Counted from the first letter of the whole stretch, positions 7,932 through 46,974 are shown. The stretch: DNA of 63,378 nt, filler included, from 4 parts of 4 records of this genome joined end to end with filler, not necessarily neighbours in it, one strand, 5' to 3'. Numbers and translations: made by a program. Notes: generated from the sequence alone by a model not told the origin.

Positions 7932-8444
7932 TTACCTATTAGAATATCTTCTTGATATTCTTTTCCCTTTCTTATCTATAATTATTTGGGAATATAACTC
8001 ATCAATTTTATTATTATATTGAGTAATTTTATCCATATTTCTTGCTATTATAAAAAAAGGTATACATAAAAATAACAAATATTGAAAACTAAACTCTTCA
8101 CTTTTAAAATTTAATAAGTTATTATCAAGTTCTTCCTTACTGTCAAGATCTTTTTTTCTAAGTTGATTATAATTACGTGCTGCTGCTTGAACCATATCTG
8201 AATCATTTTTAATCATACCATTTCTTAAGGAATGTAAAATTGTATTATATTCTATCTCATAAAACTGATGCCGTTCTGCATATATTTTATTTATTCTTTT
8301 TTCAAGCTTCTGTTCACTATTATAAACAAAAGCCAAAAAACCCAAAATAAAAATCATACTTAATTTATACCATATATCAATATTGATATTTAAAGAGTCG
8401 ATTTTACTTTTATATTCTTCTATTTTAATTTCTTTGTATTCCAT
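7932..8444 (-). CDS. Hypothetical membrane protein with two TM segments
   Basis: 170-aa AT-rich ORF converging on hypD; two hydrophobic segments. Confidence 0.6.
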   Translation of the reverse strand: MEYKEIKIEEYKSKIDSLNINIDIWYKLSMIFILGFLAFVYNSEQKLEKRINKIYAERHQFYEIEYNTILHSLRNGMIKNDSDMVQAAARNYNQLRKKDLDSKEELDNNLLNFKSEEFSFQYLLFLCIPFFIIARNMDKITQYNNKIDELYSQIIIDKKGKRISRRYSNR

Positions 8445-8527
8445 TGGTTCCCTTATATTACTATTAAATTAAAACTTATTATATATAAATTTTATGTAAT
8501 ATTTGAACAATACTTAGTATTTATACA

Positions 8528-8556
8528 TTGACATCAGTATTTAATAATAGTATAAT
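8528..8556 (+). promoter_or_regulatory. Sigma70 promoter of the toxin-antitoxin operon
   Basis: TTGACA-17 nt-TATAAT, a perfect consensus. AGTATTT occurs three times across it and an AATACTTAGTATT palindrome lies just upstream (possible operators). Confidence 0.8.
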
Positions 8557-8587
8557 AAAATAGTATTTTATCTACTAAGGATATATT

Positions 8588-8845
8588 ATGATAACGATAA
8601 ATTCAAGTGATATAATCAAAAAGCCCTCATACATTACTCAACCCAAAGATATAACATTTGTAGAAGATGCTAAAAAACATATTATAAAAAGTGTAGTAAT
8701 TCCTGCTAAATATATAGATTTGATAAAAGAAAAGCTTGAAGATATAGAGTATGAGCTTTGGTTAAAGAGAAATGAAAAAGGTTTAGCACAAGATTTAGAT
8801 GGTCTTTTTGATGAAGCTACTGGAGAAATTGGAGATAAGCTGTGA
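8588..8845 (+). CDS. Putative antitoxin
   Basis: Small protein with an acidic tail; its stop overlaps the toxin start (GTGA). Confidence 0.7.
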   Translation: MITINSSDIIKKPSYITQPKDITFVEDAKKHIIKSVVIPAKYIDLIKEKLEDIEYELWLKRNEKGLAQDLDGLFDEATGEIGDKL

Positions 8846-9197: not shown

Positions 9198-9413
9198 ATG
9201 TTTAAAAATAGTACTATAAAAAGTTTTGTATTAAAAAAAGAGATTGTTGAACAACTAGAAGAATTAGCTAAAATTAAAGATGTATCTATAACAAAAGTTA
9301 TGGAAGAGCTTATAGAAGATAGATACTATACCTTGGTTAATGAAAAAGCATTATCAAAAGAATCATATCAAGAGTTTTTAGAAATTGAAGAAGTTTGTGA
9401 GGATCTTAAATAA
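9198..9413 (+). CDS. Ribbon-helix-helix (CopG/RelB-like) small protein
   Basis: KSFVL strand, then IVEQLEELAK and SITKVMEELI helices; acidic C-terminus. Confidence 0.6.
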   Translation: MFKNSTIKSFVLKKEIVEQLEELAKIKDVSITKVMEELIEDRYYTLVNEKALSKESYQEFLEIEEVCEDLK

Positions 9414-9550: not shown

Positions 9551-9650
9551 NNNNNNNNNNNNNNNNNNNNNNNNNNNNNNNNNNNNNNNNNNNNTTAATT
9601 AATTAANNNNNNNNNNNNNNNNNNNNNNNNNNNNNNNNNNNNNNNNNNNN
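9551..9650. other. Artificial contig linker
   Basis: N44-TTAATTAATTAA-N44 (stops in all six frames); gene content changes across it. Confidence 0.98.
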
Positions 9651-10038: not shown

Positions 10039-12237
10039 ATGAAAAAGTATTCGATAATTGTTTTGTTGCTAGTATTTTCAATTCAACTTATTGGCCAACA
10101 AAAGAAAGTTTCAATTGATGACATCTATAAAGAATATGCTTTTGGAACCAGGTCTGTTTATGGCTTAACTTCTATGAAAGATGGAGTACATTATTCTGCT
10201 CTCGTAAATAGAGGAACAGCGGTTGTAAAATATAGTTACGAGTCAGGAGAGGCTGTAGATACTCTTTTCAAAGTTGCTGATTTTAACGTAGAAGATATTA
10301 AAGGTATCTCCAATTATCAGTTTAATGATGATGAATCGAAAGTGGTATTCTATATCAATTATGAAAGAATTTACAGAAGATCATTCTTTGCAGATTACTT
10401 TGTATATGATCTATCTGCAAGAAAGTTAATTAAGGTAACTGAACAAGGTCGCGAAAGGCTTGCTACACTTTCGCCTGACGGGACAAAAGTTGCTTTTTTG
10501 AGAGATAATAACCTTTTTATTCGTAACCTTAAAAGTGATGAAATAACTCAAATTACTCAGGATGGCGAGCGCAATAAAATTATCAATGGTGCTCCGGATT
10601 GGGTTTATGAAGAAGAGTTTGGCTATAATCAAGCTTTTAGCTGGTCACCTGATGGTGCATTTATTGGATATTGTAAGTTTGACGAAAGTGCAGTTAAAGA
10701 GTTTGCAATTTTAAAATATAAAGGTCTTGCACCAGAATATAAAGATAATATGCTTTACCCTGAAGTTTATGACTTTAAATATCCTAAAGCAGGCGAAGAT
10801 AATTCAATAGTTACTGTCCATACATATAACGTTGCTTCAAAAGAGACCAAAGAAATGGAAATTGGTGAAGAAACAGATGTGTATTTCCCACGAATTTTCT
10901 GGACAAAGAAAGCTAATATACTTTCTATAATTAGATTAAATCGTCTTCAGAATCATATGGATATTCTGTATGCTAATGCCAACGATGGTAAGTCTGAAGT
11001 TGTGTACAGTGAAGATAATAAGTATTACATTGATCAGCCTCCATATGAGAATCTTACTTTTATAGATGCGGATAATTTCATCATAATGAGCGAAGAGGAT
11101 GGCTATAATCATATTTATCTATATAATACTTCAAAAAAAGAAAAAAAACAGATTACAGAAGGTGAATATGATGTTGTGAGTTATTATGGATACAATCCAG
11201 ATAATGAAATGGTTTACTATAGTTCAACAGAAGAAGGAGCTATTTACCGCAGTGTGTACATGGTGAAAACAGATGGTAAAAAGAAAACTAAATTGAGCGA
11301 GCAAAAAGGAAGTAATCGGGCTGCGTTTAGCTCAAATTATAAGTATTACATTAACTATTTTTCGAATTCAAATACACCTCCATTTGTAACTTTGCATGAT
11401 AAAAAGGGCAAGCAAATTAGAGTTTTGGAAGATAATGCCAAATTCAAAGAAAGCGTTAAAGAGTATTTTATTCAACCAAAAGAGTTTACCTCATTTACAA
11501 CTTCAGAAGGTGTTGAGCTAAATTATTGGATTATAAAACCAGTTGATTTTGAAAAGGGTAAATCATATCCACTTATAATGACTCAATATTCAGGTCCTAA
11601 TTCGCAGCAGGTTGTTGACCGTTGGGGGATAGATTGGGCGCAGGTTTTAGCCAGTGAAGGGTTTGTGGTTGCTTGTGTTGACCCACGTGGTACCGGTGGT
11701 AGAGGTGAAGAGTTTCGTAAAATGACTTACAAAGAGCTTGGTAAATATGAAACAATCGACCAAATAGAAGCTGCTAAATATTTCGGTGGACTCGACTTTA
11801 TTGATGCTGATAGAATTGGCATTTATGGATGGAGTTATGGTGGATTTATGGCATTGAATTGCATGACACAGGGAGCCGATTATTTCAATACGGGTATCGC
11901 TGTAGCACCTGTAACTAACTGGCGTTATTATGATAATATTTATACTGAGCGTTTTATGCGTAAGCCTCAAGATAATGCTGAAGGGTATGATAATAATTCA
12001 CCGATCAATCATGTTGAGAAATTAAAAGGTAATGTGCTTATTGTTCATGGTTTGGCTGATGATAATGTACACCCTCAAAATACATTTGAAATAACGGAAG
12101 CTTTAGTGCAAGCCAATAAGCAATTTGATATGGCTATTTATACCAACAGGAATCATAGTATTTATGGTGGAAATACCCGTTATCACTTGTTTACTAAAAT
12201 GATAAATTATTTTAAGCAACATCTTAAAACTGAATAA
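10039..12237 (+). CDS. Dipeptidyl peptidase IV (S9B)
   Basis: Signal peptide, DWVYEEE, GWSYGG nucleophile, DDNVH, catalytic His in NHSI. Confidence 0.95.
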   Translation: MKKYSIIVLLLVFSIQLIGQQKKVSIDDIYKEYAFGTRSVYGLTSMKDGVHYSALVNRGTAVVKYSYESGEAVDTLFKVADFNVEDIKGISNYQFNDDESKVVFYINYERIYRRSFFADYFVYDLSARKLIKVTEQGRERLATLSPDGTKVAFLRDNNLFIRNLKSDEITQITQDGERNKIINGAPDWVYEEEFGYNQAFSWSPDGAFIGYCKFDESAVKEFAILKYKGLAPEYKDNMLYPEVYDFKYPKAGEDNSIVTVHTYNVASKETKEMEIGEETDVYFPRIFWTKKANILSIIRLNRLQNHMDILYANANDGKSEVVYSEDNKYYIDQPPYENLTFIDADNFIIMSEEDGYNHIYLYNTSKKEKKQITEGEYDVVSYYGYNPDNEMVYYSSTEEGAIYRSVYMVKTDGKKKTKLSEQKGSNRAAFSSNYKYYINYFSNSNTPPFVTLHDKKGKQIRVLEDNAKFKESVKEYFIQPKEFTSFTTSEGVELNYWIIKPVDFEKGKSYPLIMTQYSGPNSQQVVDRWGIDWAQVLASEGFVVACVDPRGTGGRGEEFRKMTYKELGKYETIDQIEAAKYFGGLDFIDADRIGIYGWSYGGFMALNCMTQGADYFNTGIAVAPVTNWRYYDNIYTERFMRKPQDNAEGYDNNSPINHVEKLKGNVLIVHGLADDNVHPQNTFEITEALVQANKQFDMAIYTNRNHSIYGGNTRYHLFTKMINYFKQHLKTE

Positions 12238-12284
12238 TACTTAATTTGTTACATAATTAAAACATATTTAAAACACATAAAATC

Positions 12285-13745
12285 ATGAGTGAAGAAATTA
12301 GAAATTTAGAGCCCAAAGTATTGTGGGAGCATTTTTATAGTTTAACACAAATTCCTCGTCCATCGAAAAAAGAGGAAAAGGTGAGAGCTTTTATGAAAAA
12401 GTTTGGTGAAGATCTTGGATTGGAAACCATCGAAGATGAGGTTGGAAATATAATTATTAGAAAACCTGCTACTCCTGGAATGGAAGATCGCAAAGGTGTT
12501 GTAATGCAAGGTCACTTGGATATGGTTCCGCAAGCAAATAGCGACTCTAATCACAATTTCGAAACTGATCCAATTGAAGCATTTATTGATGGAGATTGGG
12601 TAACAGCAAAAGGAACGACTTTAGGTGCCGATAATGGAATGGGAGTTGCTGCTGCAATGGCTGTACTTTCATCAAATGACCTTGAGCACCCATTAGTTGA
12701 AGGTCTTTTTACAATTGATGAAGAAGCTGGAATGACTGGAGCGAATTATTTGAAACCAGGAATTCTTAAAGGTGATATTCTTCTAAATATGGACTCAGAG
12801 GACGAAGGTGAATTATATGTTGGATGTGCTGGTGGAGAAGATGCAAACGTTTCTTTGCCTTACACAGAAGAAAACATACCAGCTGGTTATAAAGGATATA
12901 AATTATCAGTGACGGGTCTAAAAGGTGGTCACTCAGGTATGGATATTCCATTGGGACGTGGTAATGCCAATAAAATTATGTTCCGTTTATTCAATAAAGC
13001 TATTGATGCACAGGAACTAAGAGTATCAGAGATTAATGGCGGTAGTTTGCGTAATGCAATACCTCGTGAAGGTTTTGCTACTTTAGCTGTTCCTTCTGCT
13101 AAAGCTTCTGAATTTGAGGCTTATGTGAAAGAGTATGCTGCAATTGTGCAAAAAGAGCTTTCAGGTGCTGATCCGGGTGTTAAAATTGAACTTACTTCTG
13201 TTGAATCACCTTCAAAAGCAATTGATAAAGATACTTTCCGTAAATTTACGGATGCTATTATGGCTTGTCCAAATGGAGTAATTCGTATGAGCGATGCCAT
13301 GGAAGGATTGGTTGAAACATCAACTAACCTGGCTGTTGTAAAAACTGAAAATGGTGAATTAATTGCACAAGCTCTAATGCGTAGTTCAGTTGATTCAGCA
13401 AGAGATGAATTAGCTGAGCGCATGATCTCTAATTTCCGCCTTGCTGGTGCAAAAGTTGAATTAGATGGAGCTTATCCTGGTTGGAAGCCTAATATGGATT
13501 CTGAAATCTTAAAAGTTATGCAAAAAACTTATGAAGATAATTGGGGAAAGGTTCCTGAAATTAAAGCTATTCATGCCGGTTTAGAGTGTGGTATTTTAGG
13601 TAGCGCTTATCCAAACTGGGACATGATATCATTTGGACCAACCATTCGTTTCCCTCACAGTCCTGATGAAAAAGTAAATATCGAAACTGTAGGGAAATTC
13701 TGGGAATGGTTAGTGCTAACACTAAAAAATATACCTAAGAAATAA
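12285..13745 (+). CDS. pepD: Aminoacyl-histidine dipeptidase (M20C)
   Basis: QGHLDMV, LGADNG, DEEAGM, IHAGLECG, HSPDE. Confidence 0.95.
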   Translation: MSEEIRNLEPKVLWEHFYSLTQIPRPSKKEEKVRAFMKKFGEDLGLETIEDEVGNIIIRKPATPGMEDRKGVVMQGHLDMVPQANSDSNHNFETDPIEAFIDGDWVTAKGTTLGADNGMGVAAAMAVLSSNDLEHPLVEGLFTIDEEAGMTGANYLKPGILKGDILLNMDSEDEGELYVGCAGGEDANVSLPYTEENIPAGYKGYKLSVTGLKGGHSGMDIPLGRGNANKIMFRLFNKAIDAQELRVSEINGGSLRNAIPREGFATLAVPSAKASEFEAYVKEYAAIVQKELSGADPGVKIELTSVESPSKAIDKDTFRKFTDAIMACPNGVIRMSDAMEGLVETSTNLAVVKTENGELIAQALMRSSVDSARDELAERMISNFRLAGAKVELDGAYPGWKPNMDSEILKVMQKTYEDNWGKVPEIKAIHAGLECGILGSAYPNWDMISFGPTIRFPHSPDEKVNIETVGKFWEWLVLTLKNIPKK

Positions 13746-13765
13746 TTTGAATATCAGTTTGTTAG

Positions 13766-13800
13766 AAGCCGTTTTGTACTTTTCAAGGCGGCTTTTTATT
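13766..13800 (+). terminator. Intrinsic terminator after pepD
   Basis: AAGCCGTTTT...AAGGCGGCTT hairpin plus T tract. Confidence 0.75.
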
Positions 13801-13978
13801 TGAAACCATAGACTAAATCATACATAATCAATCAAATAATTTTTATATTAGCGGACTTAAAATAACTATCATCATTTAAAACGTTCAAGATGAAACATTC
13901 ATAACAAATGAGGTTTATCAAGAAAATGGGAAATACTATGGATGTTACATTGGAAAAATAAAATCAAAATTAGAGCAA

Positions 13979-15364
13979 ATGAATCAAATTACACAGTCAC
14001 TTAGAGACTCAAAAACAGCAAGATGGGGAGCCCTTGCAGTGGTGTCATTTACCATGATGACCGGTTACTATATCAATTATGTGATTTCTCCTCTAAAGCC
14101 ACTACTTGAGCAATATATGGAGTGGAATTCAAAAGATTTTGGTCTTTGGAATAGTGCTTATGGATGGTTTAATGTATTTTTCTTAATGCTTATTTTCGGT
14201 GGAATCATTCTTGATAAAATGGGTGTGCGTTTCACAGGTAAAGGAGCTGCATTAACCATGATTATTGGTACCGGATTGCAATATGCTGCTATTACTGAGA
14301 TGTGGCCAATGGACGGGATGATTTTCGGTGTTAAATCCCAAATTGCAATTGGTGCTATTGGTTTTGCTATTTTTGGAGTTGGTGTTGAGATTGCTGGAAT
14401 TACGGTGTCAAAAATTATTGTGAAGTGGTTTAAAGGTAAAGAACTTGCCCTTGCAATGGGATTAGAAATGGCTACTGCTCGTTTAGGTACAGCATTGGCT
14501 CTTGCCGTTCCGGTTCCTTTAGCAATGGCTTTTGGCGTTGATGGTATTCCAAGTGTGTCAGCCCCTGTAATGTTAGGATTAGGATTACTTGTTGCTGGGT
14601 TTATTTCATTTATTTGGTATGCTTCAATGGATAAAAAACTTGAAAAATCCGAAGGAGTTACCGATGAGGTTGCAGAAGAAGATGCATTTAAACCGAGTGA
14701 TATTTTTGATATCATTAAAAATAAAGGATTTTGGCTTATTGCCCTTCTTTGTGTACTTTTCTATTCAGGTGTTTTCCCATTTTTATATTATGCATCGGAT
14801 TTAATGGTGCAAAAATATGGCGTAGATCCAAAATTTGCCGGATCAATTCCTAGCTTGTTGCCTTTTGGAACAATTATCCTTACTCCATTTTTTGGAAATA
14901 TTTATGATAGAAAAGGTAAAGGTGCAACAATTATGTTGATTGGCTCTGTCATGCTTTTAGTTGTACATTTACTATTTGCAGTTCCTGGAATTAATCATTA
15001 CTTGTTAGCAATCGTATTAATTATATTATTAGGTGTTACATTCTCTCTTGTGCCTTCTGCTATGTGGCCTTCGGTTCCTAAATTGATTCCTGAGAAACAA
15101 TTGGGTACTGCTTATGCTTTGATTTTTTGGGTGCAAAACTGGGGATTAATGGGAATGCCTTTACTTGTTGGATGGGTACTTGAAGAATATTGTATTATTT
15201 CAAGAACAGAAGTAGCAGGTAAAATAATTACAAAATATGATTATACAGTTCCAATGTTGATTTTTGCAGCAACTGGATTACTTGCTATTATTCTTGGATT
15301 AATGCTTAAAGCTGAAGATAAGAAAAAGGGATATGGATTGGAATTACCTAATATTGAAAAATAA
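13979..15364 (+). CDS. MFS transporter
   Basis: About 12 TM segments; motif A GGIILDKMGVR and GNIYDRKGK. Confidence 0.9.
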   Translation: MNQITQSLRDSKTARWGALAVVSFTMMTGYYINYVISPLKPLLEQYMEWNSKDFGLWNSAYGWFNVFFLMLIFGGIILDKMGVRFTGKGAALTMIIGTGLQYAAITEMWPMDGMIFGVKSQIAIGAIGFAIFGVGVEIAGITVSKIIVKWFKGKELALAMGLEMATARLGTALALAVPVPLAMAFGVDGIPSVSAPVMLGLGLLVAGFISFIWYASMDKKLEKSEGVTDEVAEEDAFKPSDIFDIIKNKGFWLIALLCVLFYSGVFPFLYYASDLMVQKYGVDPKFAGSIPSLLPFGTIILTPFFGNIYDRKGKGATIMLIGSVMLLVVHLLFAVPGINHYLLAIVLIILLGVTFSLVPSAMWPSVPKLIPEKQLGTAYALIFWVQNWGLMGMPLLVGWVLEEYCIISRTEVAGKIITKYDYTVPMLIFAATGLLAIILGLMLKAEDKKKGYGLELPNIEK

Positions 15365-38620: not shown

Positions 38621-38720
38621 NNNNNNNNNNNNNNNNNNNNNNNNNNNNNNNNNNNNNNNNNNNNTTAATTAATTAANNNNNNNNNNNNNNNNNNNNNNNN
38701 NNNNNNNNNNNNNNNNNNNN
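38621..38720. other. Artificial contig linker
   Basis: N44-TTAATTAATTAA-N44. Confidence 0.98.
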
Positions 38721-38721
38721 G

Positions 38722-39285
38722 GGATTTACTGAAGAATGGGAACAGCGTAAAGCAAAAGAAATTTTTGTACCGACAGTCGATAAGAATCAACCTGAACTCC
38801 CAGTCCTATCAGTTACACAAGATTCTGGTGTAGTATACAGAGATCAGTTGGGTATCGATATTAAGTACGATAAGACAACTCTTAAGAACTATAAGGTTGT
38901 ACATCAAGGTGATTTTATAATTAGTTTGCGGTCTTTTCAGGGTGGATTTGAACTCTCTGATAAGTTAGGTATTACTAGTCCTGCATATACTGTATTTATC
39001 CCCAAAAATATAAATAACCAAGATAGTTTATTTTGGAAAGTTAAGTTTAAAACATTCACTTTTATAGAATCATTAAAAACAGTAACATTTGGAATTAGAG
39101 ATGGTAAGTCTATAAGTTTTTCTGAATTTGGAGATTTGAAGCTGTTATTTCCAAAAAATATCGAAGAACAACAAAAAATCGGAACTTTCTTCAAACAACT
39201 CGACGACACGATCGCTCTTCATCAGCGTGAGCTAGATTTGTTAAAAGAAACCAAAAAAGGGTTCCTGCAAAAATTATTTGTCTAA
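38722..39285 (+). CDS. hsdS: Type I RM specificity subunit, last TRD plus conserved tail (5'-truncated)
   Basis: Frame is open from the contig edge: GFTEEWEQRK...EEQQKIGTFFKQLDDTIALHQR...KKGFLQKLFV. Confidence 0.92.
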   Translation, partial: GFTEEWEQRKAKEIFVPTVDKNQPELPVLSVTQDSGVVYRDQLGIDIKYDKTTLKNYKVVHQGDFIISLRSFQGGFELSDKLGITSPAYTVFIPKNINNQDSLFWKVKFKTFTFIESLKTVTFGIRDGKSISFSEFGDLKLLFPKNIEEQQKIGTFFKQLDDTIALHQRELDLLKETKKGFLQKLFV

Positions 39286-39297
39286 GGAGGTGCGGGA

Positions 39298-42200
39298 ATG
39301 AAAATAAAGCATCGTGACGAAGCAGAAGTAGAAAATCACCTGATTCATATACTAGGCGAAGGACACAATCAATGGGTCTACCGACCAGAGTTAAAGTCCG
39401 AAGCAGATTTGTGGCAAAATTTTCGTGAGAAGATCACGCACAATAATCTTTCAGAAATTGGCGAACATCCTTTAACTGATAAAGAATTTGAAACTATTAA
39501 AACAGAATTGTTATTAAAAACTCAAACGCCTTTTGATGCAGCGAAATGGTTAAAAGGAGAAAATGGTATCGCTCGAATCAAGATTGATCGTGAAGATGCT
39601 TCTTTAGGATCAATCTCGTTGATTCTCTATTCAAACCAAGACGTAGGTGGAGGATTATCGACATATGAAGTTGTGAATCAAATTGCCAAACAAGACAGTA
39701 GTGCAGACGCACGTGACCGCCGGTTTGATGTGACATTATTGATCAGTGGCTTGCCAATTGTTCAAATTGAATTAAAGCAGGTCACTGCAAAAGACGGTGT
39801 TTTTCAAGCCTTTAACCAAGTAAAAAAATATGCTGAAGAAGGTGTCTTTCGTAATAACATCTTTTCGACGCTTCAATTGTTTGTTGTCTCAAACGAGCAA
39901 ACGACACGCTATTTTGCCAATGCGATGCCCAAAGACATGCATCGGAAATTTTTGTTTAGTTGGCGGACAAGAGACAACAAAAAAGTAGATAATCTTTATG
40001 AATTTTGTAAGCAAGTGTTGAATATCCCAGATGCGCATCGGCTTATCGCTAACTACACGATTGTGAGCGAAGATCAAGACAATAAAACATTAATGGTCTT
40101 ACATCCCTATCAGGTACATGCGATCGAGGCATTATTTGTGGCGGCGAATAAGCATCAATCCGGCTATGTTTGGCATGCTACTGGTTCAGGAAAAACGTTG
40201 ACAAGTTTTGTTTCAACTAAACTTTTAGCACGCAAGTCTGGTATTGATCGTACGATTATGCTGGTGGATCGCAAGGACTTAGATAATCAAACCACCAATG
40301 AATTTACAAAATTTGCCTCAGAATTTAATACAGGGACATCTTCGGGAGATGCGAAAGCCAATAGTTTAATTGTGGGAACTGGTAATGCAAAAGAGCTAGG
40401 TAGAACACTTTTGGCTGATGCAAATGCCAACGTCATTATTATTACTACCCGCCAGAAATTGGACGCAGCGCTAAAATATGCAAAAAAACAAGAGGAAAAG
40501 AATGGAACCAAGCGATTTGAAAAGCTGATTGGGCAACATATTGTTTTTGTCGTGGATGAATGCCACCGAGCTTTAAGCGCTGAAAATATGGAGGAAATCA
40601 AGCAGTTCTTTCCAAACTCTACTTGGTTCGGATTTACAGGAACGCCAATTTTTGAAGTGAATAAGAAGCAGGCCCAAGGACAATTGGCTCGTACTACTCG
40701 AGATCAGTATGGGGATGTCTTGCACACCTATACAATCAAAAATGCTTTAGAAGATGGTTCAGTATTGGGCTTTCAAGTAGAGCATGAAAATACCATTGAA
40801 CCCACATCATTAGATAATCGAATTCACCAGAAATTACTTGAAGTTGAAAAATATGCCAAATATTCTCCTGAACAAATCAATTTGATCGTGGATAATATGG
40901 ATCAAATGAAAAAGGAGAGTTATATTGAGCCGATTGTTTATGAATCAGAGGATCATATTCAGAAAGTGATCCATAAAATCTTTCGTCCTAATAATGCCTA
41001 TACAAAATTCGATTTTAGAAATGGACGACCAACAAAGTCGGCTATTTTGACAACAAGCTCCATTGAGATGGCAAAGCAATACTATCGAGCGATCAAAGAA
41101 ATGACGAAAGAATCAGATTGGCTTCAAAAAGAATTTCCTGATCAACCGATTCGTGAAGGAAGAACGATGGATGATCCAGATTTTCCGCGAATTGCCATTA
41201 CGTACTCAATGGATGAAAACGCCGCAAGTGCCAAAGAAAAGCAAGATGAAATGCAACGAATTATTTCAGAATACAATGAGTATTACCATACAGTATGGTC
41301 AATCGCAGAAATTGAACGCTATAACGGAGATATCAATAATCGTTTAGCACGGAAACGAGCAGAATTTAAGCAATTTGGTAAGCAAATCGATTTAGTGATC
41401 GTTGTTGATCGACTTTTAACAGGGTTTGATGCCCCTACGATTCAAACATTGTTTGTTGATCGAAACCTAGAATATGCAGGATTGATTCAAGCCTTTTCTC
41501 GAACGAATCGTACATATCCCGAGAAGAAGAAAGGGCTAGTCGTTACATTTAGAAAACCCGCGACAATGGAATATAATGTGGCGGAAGCTACAAAGCTATA
41601 TTCAGAAGCACAAGAAGAATCCGGGTTGATTTATCCAACCTATGAAGAATCAAAAGCTCGCTTTGAAAAAGCATATAAGCAATTACAAACATTTACCGTA
41701 ATACCTGGAACAACGGAAAATACTCCGATAGAAACCCGAGTAGATTATGTGAAAGCTTTCCAAGAGCTGAACAAAGCTTATGAGGCATTGGTCACATATG
41801 ACAATTACAATGAAGAAATGGAACAATCGGAAGTTCTAAAAGAACAAATATCAATCTTAGAAGAACAAGTTGGATTTTATGAGACGGTGAAAGGATCACT
41901 GATAGAAGAATACGAAGAAGAAGAGGATATTAATTTCTCAGCTATTGAATTTTATAGTGATAATTCAATTCGACTATATGATATCGACTCCTCGTATATC
42001 GATCAATTATTAGGTACCTATGCAGCGAATAGTTCTGATGTGCGCGAGGAAATAGAGAAAGCTCTGAAGAAGTTAAACAAAACTGAATGTGTCAAAAAAG
42101 TGTATCGTCAAATCTTAAATTCAATAGATTCTGGAGAACTTGATGAGAAAGAAGATATTTTTGCGATCAAACGACGATTTTTTGTGCAAGCAAGGGATCA

Positions 42201-42447
42201 GATGATTCATGCGTTTGCAAGAGAGTGGAATGTTTCCACTGATGAACTGCACTACTCAAGTATCCAATATGTTGTTGGAGAAGATCCCATTCCGAATATG
42301 AAAGGTATTATTCAAAGCAAAGATTTTGAGGCATACAAAGAAAAACACCCAAATGCAAAACCATTTCAATACCCGCAACAAATGAAACGAGCTTGGCGAC
42401 TCGTATTAGACGATACATTGATACCACTTGAGAATGAGCTAAGGTAG
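39298..42447 (+). CDS. hsdR: Type I restriction subunit R (IC/EcoR124I-like)
   Basis: RFDV...VQIELK nuclease motif, HATGSGKT, DECH, GFTGTP, LLTGFD, QAFSRTNR; AAGGAGG RBS. Confidence 0.96.
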   Translation: MKIKHRDEAEVENHLIHILGEGHNQWVYRPELKSEADLWQNFREKITHNNLSEIGEHPLTDKEFETIKTELLLKTQTPFDAAKWLKGENGIARIKIDREDASLGSISLILYSNQDVGGGLSTYEVVNQIAKQDSSADARDRRFDVTLLISGLPIVQIELKQVTAKDGVFQAFNQVKKYAEEGVFRNNIFSTLQLFVVSNEQTTRYFANAMPKDMHRKFLFSWRTRDNKKVDNLYEFCKQVLNIPDAHRLIANYTIVSEDQDNKTLMVLHPYQVHAIEALFVAANKHQSGYVWHATGSGKTLTSFVSTKLLARKSGIDRTIMLVDRKDLDNQTTNEFTKFASEFNTGTSSGDAKANSLIVGTGNAKELGRTLLADANANVIIITTRQKLDAALKYAKKQEEKNGTKRFEKLIGQHIVFVVDECHRALSAENMEEIKQFFPNSTWFGFTGTPIFEVNKKQAQGQLARTTRDQYGDVLHTYTIKNALEDGSVLGFQVEHENTIEPTSLDNRIHQKLLEVEKYAKYSPEQINLIVDNMDQMKKESYIEPIVYESEDHIQKVIHKIFRPNNAYTKFDFRNGRPTKSAILTTSSIEMAKQYYRAIKEMTKESDWLQKEFPDQPIREGRTMDDPDFPRIAITYSMDENAASAKEKQDEMQRIISEYNEYYHTVWSIAEIERYNGDINNRLARKRAEFKQFGKQIDLVIVVDRLLTGFDAPTIQTLFVDRNLEYAGLIQAFSRTNRTYPEKKKGLVVTFRKPATMEYNVAEATKLYSEAQEESGLIYPTYEESKARFEKAYKQLQTFTVIPGTTENTPIETRVDYVKAFQELNKAYEALVTYDNYNEEMEQSEVLKEQISILEEQVGFYETVKGSLIEEYEEEEDINFSAIEFYSDNSIRLYDIDSSYIDQLLGTYAANSSDVREEIEKALKKLNKTECVKKVYRQILNSIDSGELDEKEDIFAIKRRFFVQARDQMIHAFAREWNVSTDELHYSSIQYVVGEDPIPNMKGIIQSKDFEAYKEKHPNAKPFQYPQQMKRAWRLVLDDTLIPLENELR

Positions 42448-42454
42448 GTGAAGA

Positions 42455-45367
42455 ATGGAAATGGTTGAACAAACTGAAACAATACAAGACAATAATGAAG
42501 CTAAAAATAAAATTGTGATTGTAGGAAATGGTCTTGATATAAGTATTGGATTGAAAAGTTCTTATGAACAATTTATTGATTATATAAAAGATAGAAATCA
42601 CTTTATTGAAGATCTGGAACTGTATGAATATAACCGTCTCTTTTTAAGAAGTTATGAAAACTTTAAATTGAATTGGTCTGATTTTGAAAGTTTATATGAA
42701 GAGACGGTTAGAAAGGTTAATAAACGTATGTCTCAGCATGAGGACTTACATGATTCCTTTGAAATCACAGTGATCAATGATGCAATAAAAAAATTGGAAA
42801 AAGATTTTTATGATTATATTTCTGATGAATACCAGCGATGGTTGCAACAAAATACTGTAGTCCAAAATGATTCAACATTTAAAAAGTTTTCAATGAAAAT
42901 AAATCCTGTCATAAAAGAACTTCTTAGTGACGATGATACTTTTTTTATTAATTTTAACTATACAGAAACATTAGAGGATATTGTTGAGGATGTCATATTT
43001 GAAAAAGTTCAGAAAGACAGTAGTATCGATGATAAGCTCAAAAACCGAGTAGCTAATAATCAGATTAGAAAGGCTAAAAACAGAATTGCGCACATTCATG
43101 GAAGCATTGATGAAGATAATATTCTTTTTGGAGGAGGATTTGCTGACAGAGAGGATACGGCAAATATCCATTATTCAAGATCATTATTAAATGATAAGTT
43201 ATTTAGAATTAAGGAAAATAACAAATTGAATATTACAAGGAAAACCATCATGGAGGAGTTAAACAAAAAAGAAGATGACTTTGATTTGTACATAATGGGA
43301 CATTCTTTGCAGGGAAGTGATTTTACTTTTTTAAGTAAAATACTGAAGAATGCTAAAAGGGTTTTTATTTTTTACTACGAAAACGATTATGCTGCAAAAA
43401 TGGAAGAGCTCATAAAAAGACTAGGCTCATCTATTATAGAAAAAGTTACTTTAGTTCCTTTTGTAGAAATTTTATTTGAAGACAAAGATGTGCTAATTGA
43501 TAATTATAATAAGTATGAGACAATTTTGCCTTTCATGGAAAATAAGTTTCCAAATGAACAGATCTTAAGAAACCTATCTTTAACTACATGTCATTTTAGC
43601 TTTAAACATATATCTGAATTAGCTATTACACCGAATAATATTAACGTAGTTGTAGAATTAATAAATAAACTGTATGAAAAAAAAGTAAAGATATCAGTAA
43701 AGAAATTGTCATTTTCAGGAGAACTAGAAGAGTGTGCTTTCGAAAATTTTAATAGTTCTAAAGCATTTATTGACCTTTTAGGATCTGTAGAACGAGTGTC
43801 GTTTGAAAAAACAGGCATTGATATTGGCTTCTTAAAAATTTTATTAGACAAATCCAAACGATTAAGCCATTTAACACTAGATGATTGTACTTTGTTGAAT
43901 AATGACTATCAGGAAGTTGATTTATCCGTGTGTGAATCTTTAACACGTTTAGAAGTAAGAGATTGTATATTTAATCCAGAAGATTTAGAAAAGTCGGTTA
44001 GTTTTGGTTCTAGTAACGCGGAACATTCTGTTGAAAAATTGGTTATTGATACAAATACGAATATTATTTTTGATAATTCTATGTTTGAACAAGCAAAGAA
44101 TTTAATCGACTTGTCAATTACACTTTCCGATACAGATATTCATTCAATTGAAGGGTATCTAAAAAATTTAGAGATCTTGTTTATTGATTGTTCCGCAGCA
44201 TCTTTTCCAAAGCTAACAGTGGGAGATAAAATCAAAGAAATAACAATTGTAGGTTACCCTAGAGAACAGCTCAAGCTCTCATCAATTTTAAAGAATACTG
44301 AGGTATCACTGGGATTTCCAAAATTTCAAATTTTGCAATTAAATAGTGCAGACAATATTACAGATTTCTCCCAAATTGATATCGATGTATTTGTGGATAT
44401 TTTTTCTCGAAATATCAAATTAATTCTTGATGGTCATAACATATCAATTGAAGAATATTATAATACGTATAAGCCACATCCATCCCAAACATTCTTAACG
44501 GAAACAAAGGATATAGTGAGAAAAACGTTGTTAGCTACTTTTAATAATGATATATATGCTTCGAACAATGTATTGGAAGAATTTAAAAACTGGTATGATG
44601 AAATTTCGAATCTCTCATTTGAAGAAGAGGATAGTAAATTTTTGGATTTTCTGGAGCAAAGAATAGCAACTACTTACCCTAAAGAGGGAGAAACAGTGGC
44701 GCCCGAAATAGATAGTGCAGATACAGGAAAGTTTGCGGCAAAGGAAGCGTCACATAAATATGGGACTACTCATGAATCCTTAAAAGTAACGGATGGAAAT
44801 TTTTTAGGCAGAATTGATAAAAAAGAAAAATCGTCTCAGTATGAAGATAATCATCTGATTTATGGTAAGAATATAGGGAAGCATGCTATACAGGAGACTT
44901 CAGAAAATTTTAAGATTTCTAAAATAACTAATTCTATAATTGATTATTCAAAAAGAAACATTACAAAATCTGAGGTAATCAATCTCTTGAAACAAAAAGA
45001 TAAGAAAGAGTTCATCATTGATTTATACGATAAAATTTTAAATAGCATAACTAGTCCTATCGATAAAGAAGTAGTAAACAACCTGAAACAACAATACTTT
45101 GGTAATGAAGTAGCTAGCATTTTAAGTGAATTTTCTCACGAATGGTGTGTTTCTGAAGAAGACCTAGAATTATCTAGTATGCAGTATAAAAAAGGAATGG
45201 ATACAATCCCTAATTTAAGAAAAATTATCGAAAATAAAGATTTTGAGGAATATAAAAAGAAACACCCTGAGAGTAATATCTTCAAATATTCGCAAGAATT
45301 AAAACACAATTGGCAGTCAGTACTTGAGAATAAACTGATTTTTATTAAAGAAGAACTCGAAGTATAA
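42455..45367 (+). CDS. AbiH-family (SIR2-like) protein fused to an LRR region and an HsdR-like C-terminal domain
   Basis: IVGNGLD, INFNYT, HIHG and IMGHSL AbiH motifs; LxxLxL repeats at about aa 386-632; C-terminus aligns with the HsdR C-terminus. Confidence 0.85.
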   Translation: MEMVEQTETIQDNNEAKNKIVIVGNGLDISIGLKSSYEQFIDYIKDRNHFIEDLELYEYNRLFLRSYENFKLNWSDFESLYEETVRKVNKRMSQHEDLHDSFEITVINDAIKKLEKDFYDYISDEYQRWLQQNTVVQNDSTFKKFSMKINPVIKELLSDDDTFFINFNYTETLEDIVEDVIFEKVQKDSSIDDKLKNRVANNQIRKAKNRIAHIHGSIDEDNILFGGGFADREDTANIHYSRSLLNDKLFRIKENNKLNITRKTIMEELNKKEDDFDLYIMGHSLQGSDFTFLSKILKNAKRVFIFYYENDYAAKMEELIKRLGSSIIEKVTLVPFVEILFEDKDVLIDNYNKYETILPFMENKFPNEQILRNLSLTTCHFSFKHISELAITPNNINVVVELINKLYEKKVKISVKKLSFSGELEECAFENFNSSKAFIDLLGSVERVSFEKTGIDIGFLKILLDKSKRLSHLTLDDCTLLNNDYQEVDLSVCESLTRLEVRDCIFNPEDLEKSVSFGSSNAEHSVEKLVIDTNTNIIFDNSMFEQAKNLIDLSITLSDTDIHSIEGYLKNLEILFIDCSAASFPKLTVGDKIKEITIVGYPREQLKLSSILKNTEVSLGFPKFQILQLNSADNITDFSQIDIDVFVDIFSRNIKLILDGHNISIEEYYNTYKPHPSQTFLTETKDIVRKTLLATFNNDIYASNNVLEEFKNWYDEISNLSFEEEDSKFLDFLEQRIATTYPKEGETVAPEIDSADTGKFAAKEASHKYGTTHESLKVTDGNFLGRIDKKEKSSQYEDNHLIYGKNIGKHAIQETSENFKISKITNSIIDYSKRNITKSEVINLLKQKDKKEFIIDLYDKILNSITSPIDKEVVNNLKQQYFGNEVASILSEFSHEWCVSEEDLELSSMQYKKGMDTIPNLRKIIENKDFEEYKKKHPESNIFKYSQELKHNWQSVLENKLIFIKEELEV

Positions 45368-45414: not shown

Positions 45415-46347
45415 TTGGTGCTTTATCAATTAAGCAATCAAAAAATGGAAGAGATTGAAGAAGAAGTTTTTGTGAAAGAAAAACAGTTACAAGCCATTAT
45501 CGAAGAAAACTTAGAGATTTTGTTTAATTTACTCTTTGTAGCCTCTGAGTTTCCTGTAGGGAATTTTCGTTTAGATACTGTTGCCTATGATCCTGATACA
45601 AAAAGTTTTGTGATTATAGAGTATAAAAAAGGAAAGAGATACAGTGTCATTGACCAAGGATATGCCTATCTTAATACATTATTGGCTCATAAGGGTGAAT
45701 TTGTACTTAAGTACAATGAGCGTTATCCAGAAAATTTAAAACGAATTGACGAGATTGATTGGTCTCAGACACGTATTATTTTTGTCGCTAATGAGTATAC
45801 AAATTATCAATACGGAGCAGTCAACAATCCCAATCTACCTATCGAGTTGGTCATTGCGAAAAAGTACAAAAATAATTTGATCAATATAGAATCTTTAACA
45901 AAAACAAACAGCACTATTGAACCAATTAAGAAGGTAGAAAAGACGTCTTCTGAGCAAGGGCTATCGAAAGAAATAAGCATTTATACAGAGCAAGAACACC
46001 TGCTAAAAGGATCAGAAGAGATTCAAGAATTGTATTTAGAATTAAAAGAAATTATATTGAGCTGGGATAGCGACATTAAGGTAAAAGCTGTGAAGTTATA
46101 CAATTCGTTTAAACTCAAGCGAAACATCGTTGATATTCAAATCCAAAAAAATGCTTTGAAAATTTGGATTAATCTAAAGACAGGTCAGTTAAATGATTCA
46201 CGAAATGTGGCGAGAAATGTGAGTGAAATCGGACATTGGGGAAACGGGGATTATGAGATCGTTATAAAAGATAATCGAGAGATTGAGTATATTGCTAGTT
46301 TGATTAAACAGTCTTGGATGAACTATAAAAATCAACAAGGAGAATAG
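45415..46347 (+). CDS. NucS/EndoMS-like PD-(D/E)xK nuclease domain plus DUF5655-like domain
   Basis: EKQLQ...RLDTVA...IIEYKK...DQGYAY nuclease motifs; C-terminal RNVSEIGHWGNGDYE; AAGGAGG RBS. Confidence 0.75.
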   Translation: MVLYQLSNQKMEEIEEEVFVKEKQLQAIIEENLEILFNLLFVASEFPVGNFRLDTVAYDPDTKSFVIIEYKKGKRYSVIDQGYAYLNTLLAHKGEFVLKYNERYPENLKRIDEIDWSQTRIIFVANEYTNYQYGAVNNPNLPIELVIAKKYKNNLINIESLTKTNSTIEPIKKVEKTSSEQGLSKEISIYTEQEHLLKGSEEIQELYLELKEIILSWDSDIKVKAVKLYNSFKLKRNIVDIQIQKNALKIWINLKTGQLNDSRNVARNVSEIGHWGNGDYEIVIKDNREIEYIASLIKQSWMNYKNQQGE

Positions 46348-46638: not shown

Positions 46639-46974
46639 ATGCAAAACCAACCCTCTTCAATGGAACGGATCAATAAATTCCGAGATGATCGCAATTGGCG
46701 ACAATTTCATAATGAAAAAGATCTAGCTATTTCTATCTCCATCGAAGCCGCCGAATTGTTGGAGATTTTTCAATGGAAAACACCTAAAGAAGCCACTCAA
46801 GATTTCGAACATTTAAAAGAAGAAATTGCCGATGTTCTGATTTATTCCTATATGCTGGCAGACAATTTGGGTCTTGATATTGATGAGATCATCAAAGAAA
46901 AGCTGGAAAAAAACAACATGAAGTATCCGGTAAAAGAAAGTAAAGATTCGAAAAAGAAGTATAATGAGTTGTAA
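46639..46974 (+). CDS. MazG-like nucleotide pyrophosphohydrolase
   Basis: RNWRQFH, EAAELLE, EEIADV, KYP. Confidence 0.92.
   Translation: MQNQPSSMERINKFRDDRNWRQFHNEKDLAISISIEAAELLEIFQWKTPKEATQDFEHLKEEIADVLIYSYMLADNLGLDIDEIIKEKLEKNNMKYPVKESKDSKKKYNEL

Follow-up and report, generated by a model that had tools for sequence, protein, structure and literature searches.

A predicted AbiH-leucine-rich-repeat protein with an HsdR-like tail, encoded beside type I restriction genes in Bacilli, as a possible guard of restriction

The window, i.e. the whole stretch of 63,378 nucleotides that was analysed, is a string of contigs with N-padded TTAATTAATTAA spacers at 9595, 38621-38720 and 58223. Because these spacers join unrelated contigs, the rpsL-rpsG-fusA stretch to the left of 38621 lies on another contig and is no neighbour of the restriction-modification (RM) locus described here. 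The contig of interest begins at 38721 and opens with hsdS, of which the contig start leaves only the 3' part (38721..39285, + strand); hsdM falls outside the window. On the same strand follow an intact EcoR124/type IC-like hsdR with helicase and nuclease-region motifs (39298..42447) and, starting 7 bp past the hsdR stop, a gene encoding a protein of 970 aa (42455..45367). This protein consists of an AbiH/SIR2-like domain (aa 18-340; 42506..43474), a predicted leucine-rich-repeat (LRR) solenoid with caps (aa ~355-674; 43517..44476) that contains ten LxxLxL strands (aa 386-634; 43610..44356), a connector that is helical in the AlphaFold model (aa 675-738; 44477..44668; the helical segment starts at about aa 665), a length-variable linker that is disordered in the same model (aa 739-819; 44669..44911) and, as its tail, a copy of HsdR's C-terminal region (aa 820-970; 44912..45364). 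Directly downstream, also on the + strand, lies a PDC-S18 candidate defence gene (DUF5655; 45415..46347; PADLOC E 4e-122), which has a similar ORF at the same place in one other locus (L008) and is not a constant partner, and further on a gene for a MazG-like nucleotide pyrophosphohydrolase (46639..46974, +). A scan of the locus for promoters and terminators gave matches at chance level only. Near-identical proteins are named as coming from Enterococcus casseliflavus and E. entomosocium.

The N-terminal domain matches the Pfam AbiH family well above its cut-off (PF14253, 90.2 bits against 30.9, E 3e-25), and by VIA re-alignment aa 3-374 of the predicted model superimpose on the SIR2 domain of SIR2-HerA chains with Z 13.5; a sequence match of this region to any solved SIR2 was not found. 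The motifs NFNYT (N168) and HxHG (H215) are invariant in 55 of 55 proteins, and the two residues form a putative catalytic pair, mapped by motif and spacing only to residues N112/H152 of ThsA as given in the available part of 10.1101/2024.09.18.613514. The AbiH domain is a predicted NAD-destroying effector. AbiH is the sole match of Pfam and PADLOC on the 970-aa protein, in which neither an ABC-ATPase/HEPN tRNase nor RonA was found. In its N-terminal domain, its SIR2 fold and its invariant N/H motifs the protein resembles the lactococcal Abi family, also listed as the SIR2-like 'sirim' proteins. In contrast, ordinary AbiH ORFs, as represented by our viral-contig set, have 290-450 aa, no LRR match and no hsd neighbours, so that the fusion family adds an LRR region of about 320 aa and the HsdR-like tail. 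DSR2, which senses the phage tail tube, is a further point of comparison: like DSR2, SIR2-HerA and ThsA, the fusion combines a SIR2 effector fold with a regulatory module, but the sensor domains of those systems are different and none of them is described as RM-linked in the passages available. In the accessible parts of the literature AbiH is a tested Abi family, the mechanism and trigger of which reviews list as unknown.

The initial annotation had pointed to about 10 LxxLxL-type strands at roughly 20-30 aa spacing, and the ORF indeed contains ten such motifs (positions 43610-44344 of the window), starting at aa 386, 415, 445, 470, 496, 526, 550, 572, 593 and 624 with spacings of 29, 30, 25, 26, 30, 24, 22, 21 and 31 aa. 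In at least 94% of the 54 proteins aligned, hydrophobic residues occupy the three core positions of the ten strands (the alignment omits P0003, a near-duplicate). In the single sequence the loose LxxLxL pattern is weakly enriched (14 occurrences against 8.6±2.6 in shuffled sequences, p=0.036), and a stricter version of the pattern occurs 10 times against 3.2±1.6 (p=0.0002). Across the alignment we counted 11 triples of conserved columns against 2.7±1.5, a number reached by none of 5000 shuffles, and the AbiH domain has none. The repeats are degenerate: the canonical N/T/C at position 9 is kept in four of the ten, no Pfam LRR family matches the 970-aa protein at E<=1, and profile matches are weak, with Skp2/FBXL2 at E 0.07-0.4 and F-box LRRs reached by the LRR profile at E 1e-4 to 1e-3. 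The weak sequence matches are mostly to LRRs of what we take to be the F-box and cysteine-containing subclasses. Among 4518 candidates there was no stand-alone or shorter homologue of the LRR region, and a search of the LRR profile against 1.84 billion representatives returned four matches at E<=1e-10, all from the same family and none with another effector.

Two AlphaFold models, one of the full-length protein built with 55 sequences and one of the LRR region built with 10, agree on the fold. The full-length model places a beta-strand at each of the ten motifs (block pLDDT mostly 84-96, one block 74), and the LRR-only model is concordant with a pTM of 0.79. The modelled solenoid extends over aa ~355-674, includes an N-cap and has an additional, 11th strand (aa 655-658); long convex helices are found in repeats 1-3 only, and the later repeats have short helices, loops and extra strands, which adds to the degeneracy of the region. 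The top Foldseek matches of the full-length model are LRR proteins together with SIR2 proteins. By VIA re-alignment, aa 355-674 match the LRR of NRG1C (Z 14.4, rmsd 3.5, 237 aligned), and in a search of 48,161 PDB representatives the best 50 matches listed are all LRR proteins (Z 11.4-14.4), led by FBXL17 (Z 14.4, rmsd 5.8, 265 aligned). The named neighbours in the ESM Atlas belong to LRR-clan families (0.90-0.91), which we take as a lead only. Structure prediction thus supports the proposal that an LRR solenoid lies between the AbiH domain and the hydrophilic linker.

The same annotation had drawn a parallel to plant NLR receptors, and this parallel fares less well. Like bacterial and plant NLRs such as bNACHT16, which has an LRR, and the RRS1-type integrated decoys, the protein has an N-terminal effector, an LRR and a C-terminal integrated host domain. 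In the wide PDB search, however, LRRs of the NLR, F-box, SDS22 and bacterial kinds score alike to about 2 Z units, so that the solenoid has no specific affinity to the LRRs of NLRs. The remark that no NTPase motif is visible was borne out: a Walker A motif was found in none of 61 proteins, no Pfam NACHT or NB-ARC family matched, and no modelled domain is left over that could be an NTPase. Furthermore, the LRR is not diversifying. Hypervariability of its concave face, suggested as a feature to look for across homologues, was not observed: entropy at the concave face is 1.49 compared to 1.55 at other polar LRR sites (p=0.58), and dN/dS in eight pairs, which share branches and are therefore not independent, is 0.07-0.17 for AbiH, 0.19-0.29 for the LRR and 0.20-0.41 for concave sites (one pair being saturated for AbiH and one for the concave sites, leaving 7/8 usable). 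Among the near-identical members compared, one of 50 concave sites varies. A partner that stays the same would fit the absence of hypervariability better than a phage ligand that changes. In total, the AbiH-LRR-tail protein is an LRR protein but no NLR.

The C-terminal tail has its counterpart, by sequence likeness, in the product of the adjacent gene. Its BLAST core (aa 838-968) is 40% identical to aa 916-1048 of the neighbouring HsdR (E 1e-25; 42043-42441, +), and 53 of 55 proteins possess the tail, the two exceptions being one truncated and one partial record. HsdR has the same consensus residue at 29 of the 31 most conserved tail sites, including the polar K850, K878, Q910, N920, K950 and E967. 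Values of dN/dS are 0.21-0.59 for the tail, 0.03-0.27 for the true HsdR C-terminus and 0.53-1.46, i.e. near-neutral, for the linker, and by these comparisons the tail is under purifying selection, though of a weaker degree than the true HsdR C-terminus. Pfam EcoR124_C covers aa 778-1026 of HsdR. Since the HsdR in the window aligns to EcoR124I only up to aa 838, with no alignment in the tail region, the link of the tail to the EcoR124 C-terminal domain rests on this Pfam match; a search of the tail profile against the PDB did not match the EcoR124I C-terminus. The sole PDB match in that search, a Plasmodium methyltransferase (E 3e-4), was rejected as composition-driven. HsdR's C-terminal part is described, in the accessible text of PMC2878639 and PMC5248579, as presumed to bind HsdM/HsdS.

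In one E. faecalis locus (L009) the last 150 nt of hsdR and abiH are identical at 148 positions (9256-9405 and 12009-12158, a direct repeat). The protein ending recurs in P0058, which is recorded on 81 contigs, and this counts against a one-off misassembly; the repeat likely arose by gene conversion. Such a direct repeat could also permit clean loss of abiH by recombination. We also looked for co-evolution of cognate tails and HsdR proteins within group 1 (defined below) and rejected it: except in L009 and marginally in L002, a tail resembles the HsdR of its own locus no more than it does other HsdR proteins, and there is thus no fine-scale co-evolution.

We found 54 homologues, and all named ones come from Bacilli (Enterococcus, Bacillus, Carnobacterium and Brochothrix, with members including B. 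subtilis). The family is rare (2/134 Enterococcaceae, 2/401 Bacilli and 3/401 Lactobacillales genomes), and its linkage to hsd genes is tight. An AbiH-LRR gene is present in 18 of 19 loci, and hsdR is present in all 18 of these (about 15 distinct; L010 broken); in the 13 intact group-1 loci the gene lies directly after hsdR in every case, with a gap of -4 to 391 bp. By comparison, neither hsdR nor hsdM was found near short AbiH genes in 50 viral-contig loci, of which 20 are distinct and in which hsd genes are rarer. Conversely, an AbiH gene lies within 1.5 kb in one of 30 loci with an hsdR of the second subfamily (group 2), from which it follows that the AbiH fusion is an optional add-on. The 19th locus (L023) holds a tail-only remnant and no hsdR: an orphan C-terminal fragment at 8001-8792, with connector and tail but no AbiH or LRR, is annotated there as 'class I tRNA ligase family protein', and because the downstream gene order is like that of L002, L023 is likely a deletion derivative. 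Fragments account for many members of the P0092, P0037 and P0083 clusters, particularly in Brochothrix thermosphacta, which suggests that the gene is often inactivated.

A second clade was reached when the LRR profile matched P0095 (E 1e-4) and led to AbiH-LRR proteins of 774-798 aa with a shorter tail. All 12 group-1 tails scored 102-142 bits on the group-1 HsdR profile and 21-41 on that of group 2, and all five group-2 tails scored 29-61 bits on the group-2 profile and 4-19 on that of group 1. A quick tree gave the same split (SH-aLRT 100, long branches). As judged from these profiles, the two clades bear tails of different HsdR subfamilies and tail type follows clade, the two clades being one independent contrast only. 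One group-2 locus (L080) has the order hsdM-hsdS-hsdR(group 2)-AbiH-LRR(group-2 tail). Two others depart from this arrangement. L079 combines a group-2 tail with an HsdR that is the only one detected and of group-1 type; here (10111-14087) the group-2 AbiH-LRR gene stands directly before an extra divergent hsdM, with NPTY instead of NPPY as motif IV, and a complete group-1 operon follows, possibly a Ronin-like decoy layout. L030 (8992-10476) encodes a tailless AbiH protein of 494 aa in which the LRR is partial; the gene lies between hsdR-fic and hsdS of a group-2 operon in an integrase-bearing element.

Combining these data, we suggest that the protein is a guard of type I restriction in the manner of PrrC and Ronin, tethered via its HsdR-like tail and with the LRR restraining the NADase, a reading that we hold at about even chances. 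In this model, the HsdR-like tail would dock the protein on the type I methyltransferase, the LRR would hold the SIR2 NADase off while docked, and sabotage of the restriction complex would release the effector and lead to NAD loss and cell shutdown. For a SIR2 effector that carries a copy of the HsdR docking region maintained by selection, and that was found next to hsd genes only, a tethered guard is the simplest account. For the LRR, a role in auto-inhibition or relay is suggested by its position between effector and tail and by its lack of diversification, and it draws on analogy; docking, auto-inhibition, trigger, NADase activity and phage defence are all things that we infer. PrrC is an ABC-ATPase/HEPN tRNase, the gene for which lies between hsdS and hsdR. 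The PrrC guard of the type IC RM system EcoprrI offers a toxic effector in a type IC operon that is released on inhibition of the RM enzyme, but as far as the available descriptions go it has no LRR, SIR2 domain or HsdR copy. In Ronin (RonA plus an HsdMS decoy), according to the accessible text, the effector is suppressed by HsdMS and triggered by Ocr/ArdA, and methyltransferase catalysis is not needed; it differs in that the toxin RonA is a membrane protein of 61 aa and hsdR is absent from the locus, whereas in the AbiH-fusion locus hsdR is intact and the effector has its own HsdR-like tail.

A more specific version of the guard model, which we put forward only tentatively, is that of an NTPase-free NLR-like receptor: a captured HsdR tail would hold an LRR-restrained SIR2 NADase in the socket that the methyltransferase has for HsdR. 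Displacement of the receptor by anti-restriction proteins of the Ocr/ArdA type, or by ones that bear an HsdR tail, would set it off. Each HsdR subfamily would have had its own capture or swap of the tail, and gene conversion from hsdR would renew it. DarB-like phage proteins with group-1 or group-2 HsdR tails were not found, with none for group 2 and none in viral contigs; the group-1 tail search gave three matches in unverified phage records, including one full hsdR and one cut at the contig start. Two such 'phage' records (L112 and L113) carry an hsdR of chromosomal type (79% identity, full length in L112) and are likely host contigs. Several observations speak against a guard. Group-1 tails do not track their own HsdR beyond the exceptions given above, the tail is under weaker selection than the genuine HsdR C-terminus, L079 has mismatched tail and HsdR, and the L030 form, which is part of an hsd operon, lacks the tail and has half an LRR. 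Moreover, a tail that occupies the HsdR site would compete with restriction, and tails would equally match their subfamily if they arose from an insertion at the 3' end of hsdR that made a long duplication.

The last point leads to the reading to which we give the least credence, namely that the tail is the scar left when an AbiH-LRR cassette entered at the 3' end of hsdR and duplicated a long target stretch, and that it has no functional link to restriction. Insertions of this type are documented for RM genes (PMC2853133, as far as accessible), and one would account for position, subfamily match and the L009 direct repeat; whichever reading holds, the tail could plausibly have originated in this way. 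A mere scar is difficult to reconcile with a tail that is in frame in 53/55 group-1 and 5/5 full-length group-2 proteins, that has dN/dS of 0.21-0.59 and that keeps the same polar residues as HsdR at about 40% identity. If the tail has a function, it could be that of an integrated decoy, as the initial annotation had proposed: a free bait for some protein of a phage or plasmid that attaches to the C-terminus of HsdR itself, with the LRR relaying to SIR2 and without methyltransferase docking. The effector-LRR-host-domain layout, the placement of the tail on a linker modelled as flexible, its greater variability compared to the true HsdR domain and its apparent refreshment from hsdR in L009 all fit such a bait, and the part of the proposal that stands is the copy of a host domain, the HsdR C-terminus, under purifying selection. 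This selection on tail and LRR is, however, not diversifying, a free bait would need no such tight hsd linkage, and the anti-restriction proteins in the literature, as far as available, act on HsdMS. The tail reads better as a docking mimic tethering the effector to the methyltransferase than as free bait, and we consider the decoy unlikely.

The LRR might instead sense a phage protein directly, as DSR2 does with the tail tube, in which case the tail would only anchor or silence the protein and the RM operon would be a host site and complementary defence. L030, with AbiH and part of the LRR kept and the tail absent, would suit this, and in the passages available LRRs are proposed as sensors in bacterial NACHT proteins and RM-embedded systems such as TgvAB are independent of HsdR cutting. 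Given that the concave face is not hypervariable, with a single varying site among near-identical members, and that our searches never returned the LRR by itself or joined to a different effector, we give direct sensing a rather small probability. Tuning of restriction without suicide, in which the protein competes with HsdR for the methyltransferase (restriction alleviation) and SIR2 serves as an NAD sensor or modifier, seems to us very improbable: AbiH is a tested Abi family, the SIR2-type residues are invariant, and copies are fragmented in several clusters, as for a costly gene. In its favour, the tail copies an assembly-implicated region, and type IC restriction alleviation works through assembly according to the available portion of the literature.

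If the guard model is true, type I restriction can be guarded in a new way, by a protein that mimics the region through which HsdR docks, and an LRR can act in bacterial immunity without a STAND NTPase; the model also gives a testable trigger for one branch of AbiH, a family for which activation is listed as unknown. Our results suggest that known kinds, AbiH/SIR2 defence and RM guards, are extended here with an LRR and an HsdR tail. A literature search by title and abstract start within full text, mostly without subscription papers, found no description of an AbiH-LRR-HsdR-tail protein, and supplementary domain tables, e.g. of sirims, could list the fusion; the full-text search likewise found no paper treating AbiH, type I restriction and HsdR together. 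Further literature behind our comparisons, accessible in part, comprises PMC13064643, 10.1101/2023.04.06.535777, PMC9613975, PMC11411939, PMC12707154, PMC12322248, PMC13434031, PMC11702601 and 10.1101/2022.07.19.500537. NCBIfam has no family for the protein, and beyond the label 'AbiH' the family is invisible to Pfam, PADLOC and NCBIfam. In some sources P0023, P0025, P0034 and P0052 carry the label 'magnesium transporter', likely a misannotation. Among the individual loci, hsdM is split into two ORFs in L001 (4422-6016), and a short tandem hexapeptide repeat is found at the N-terminus of the AbiH fusion in L074 (9709-9850).
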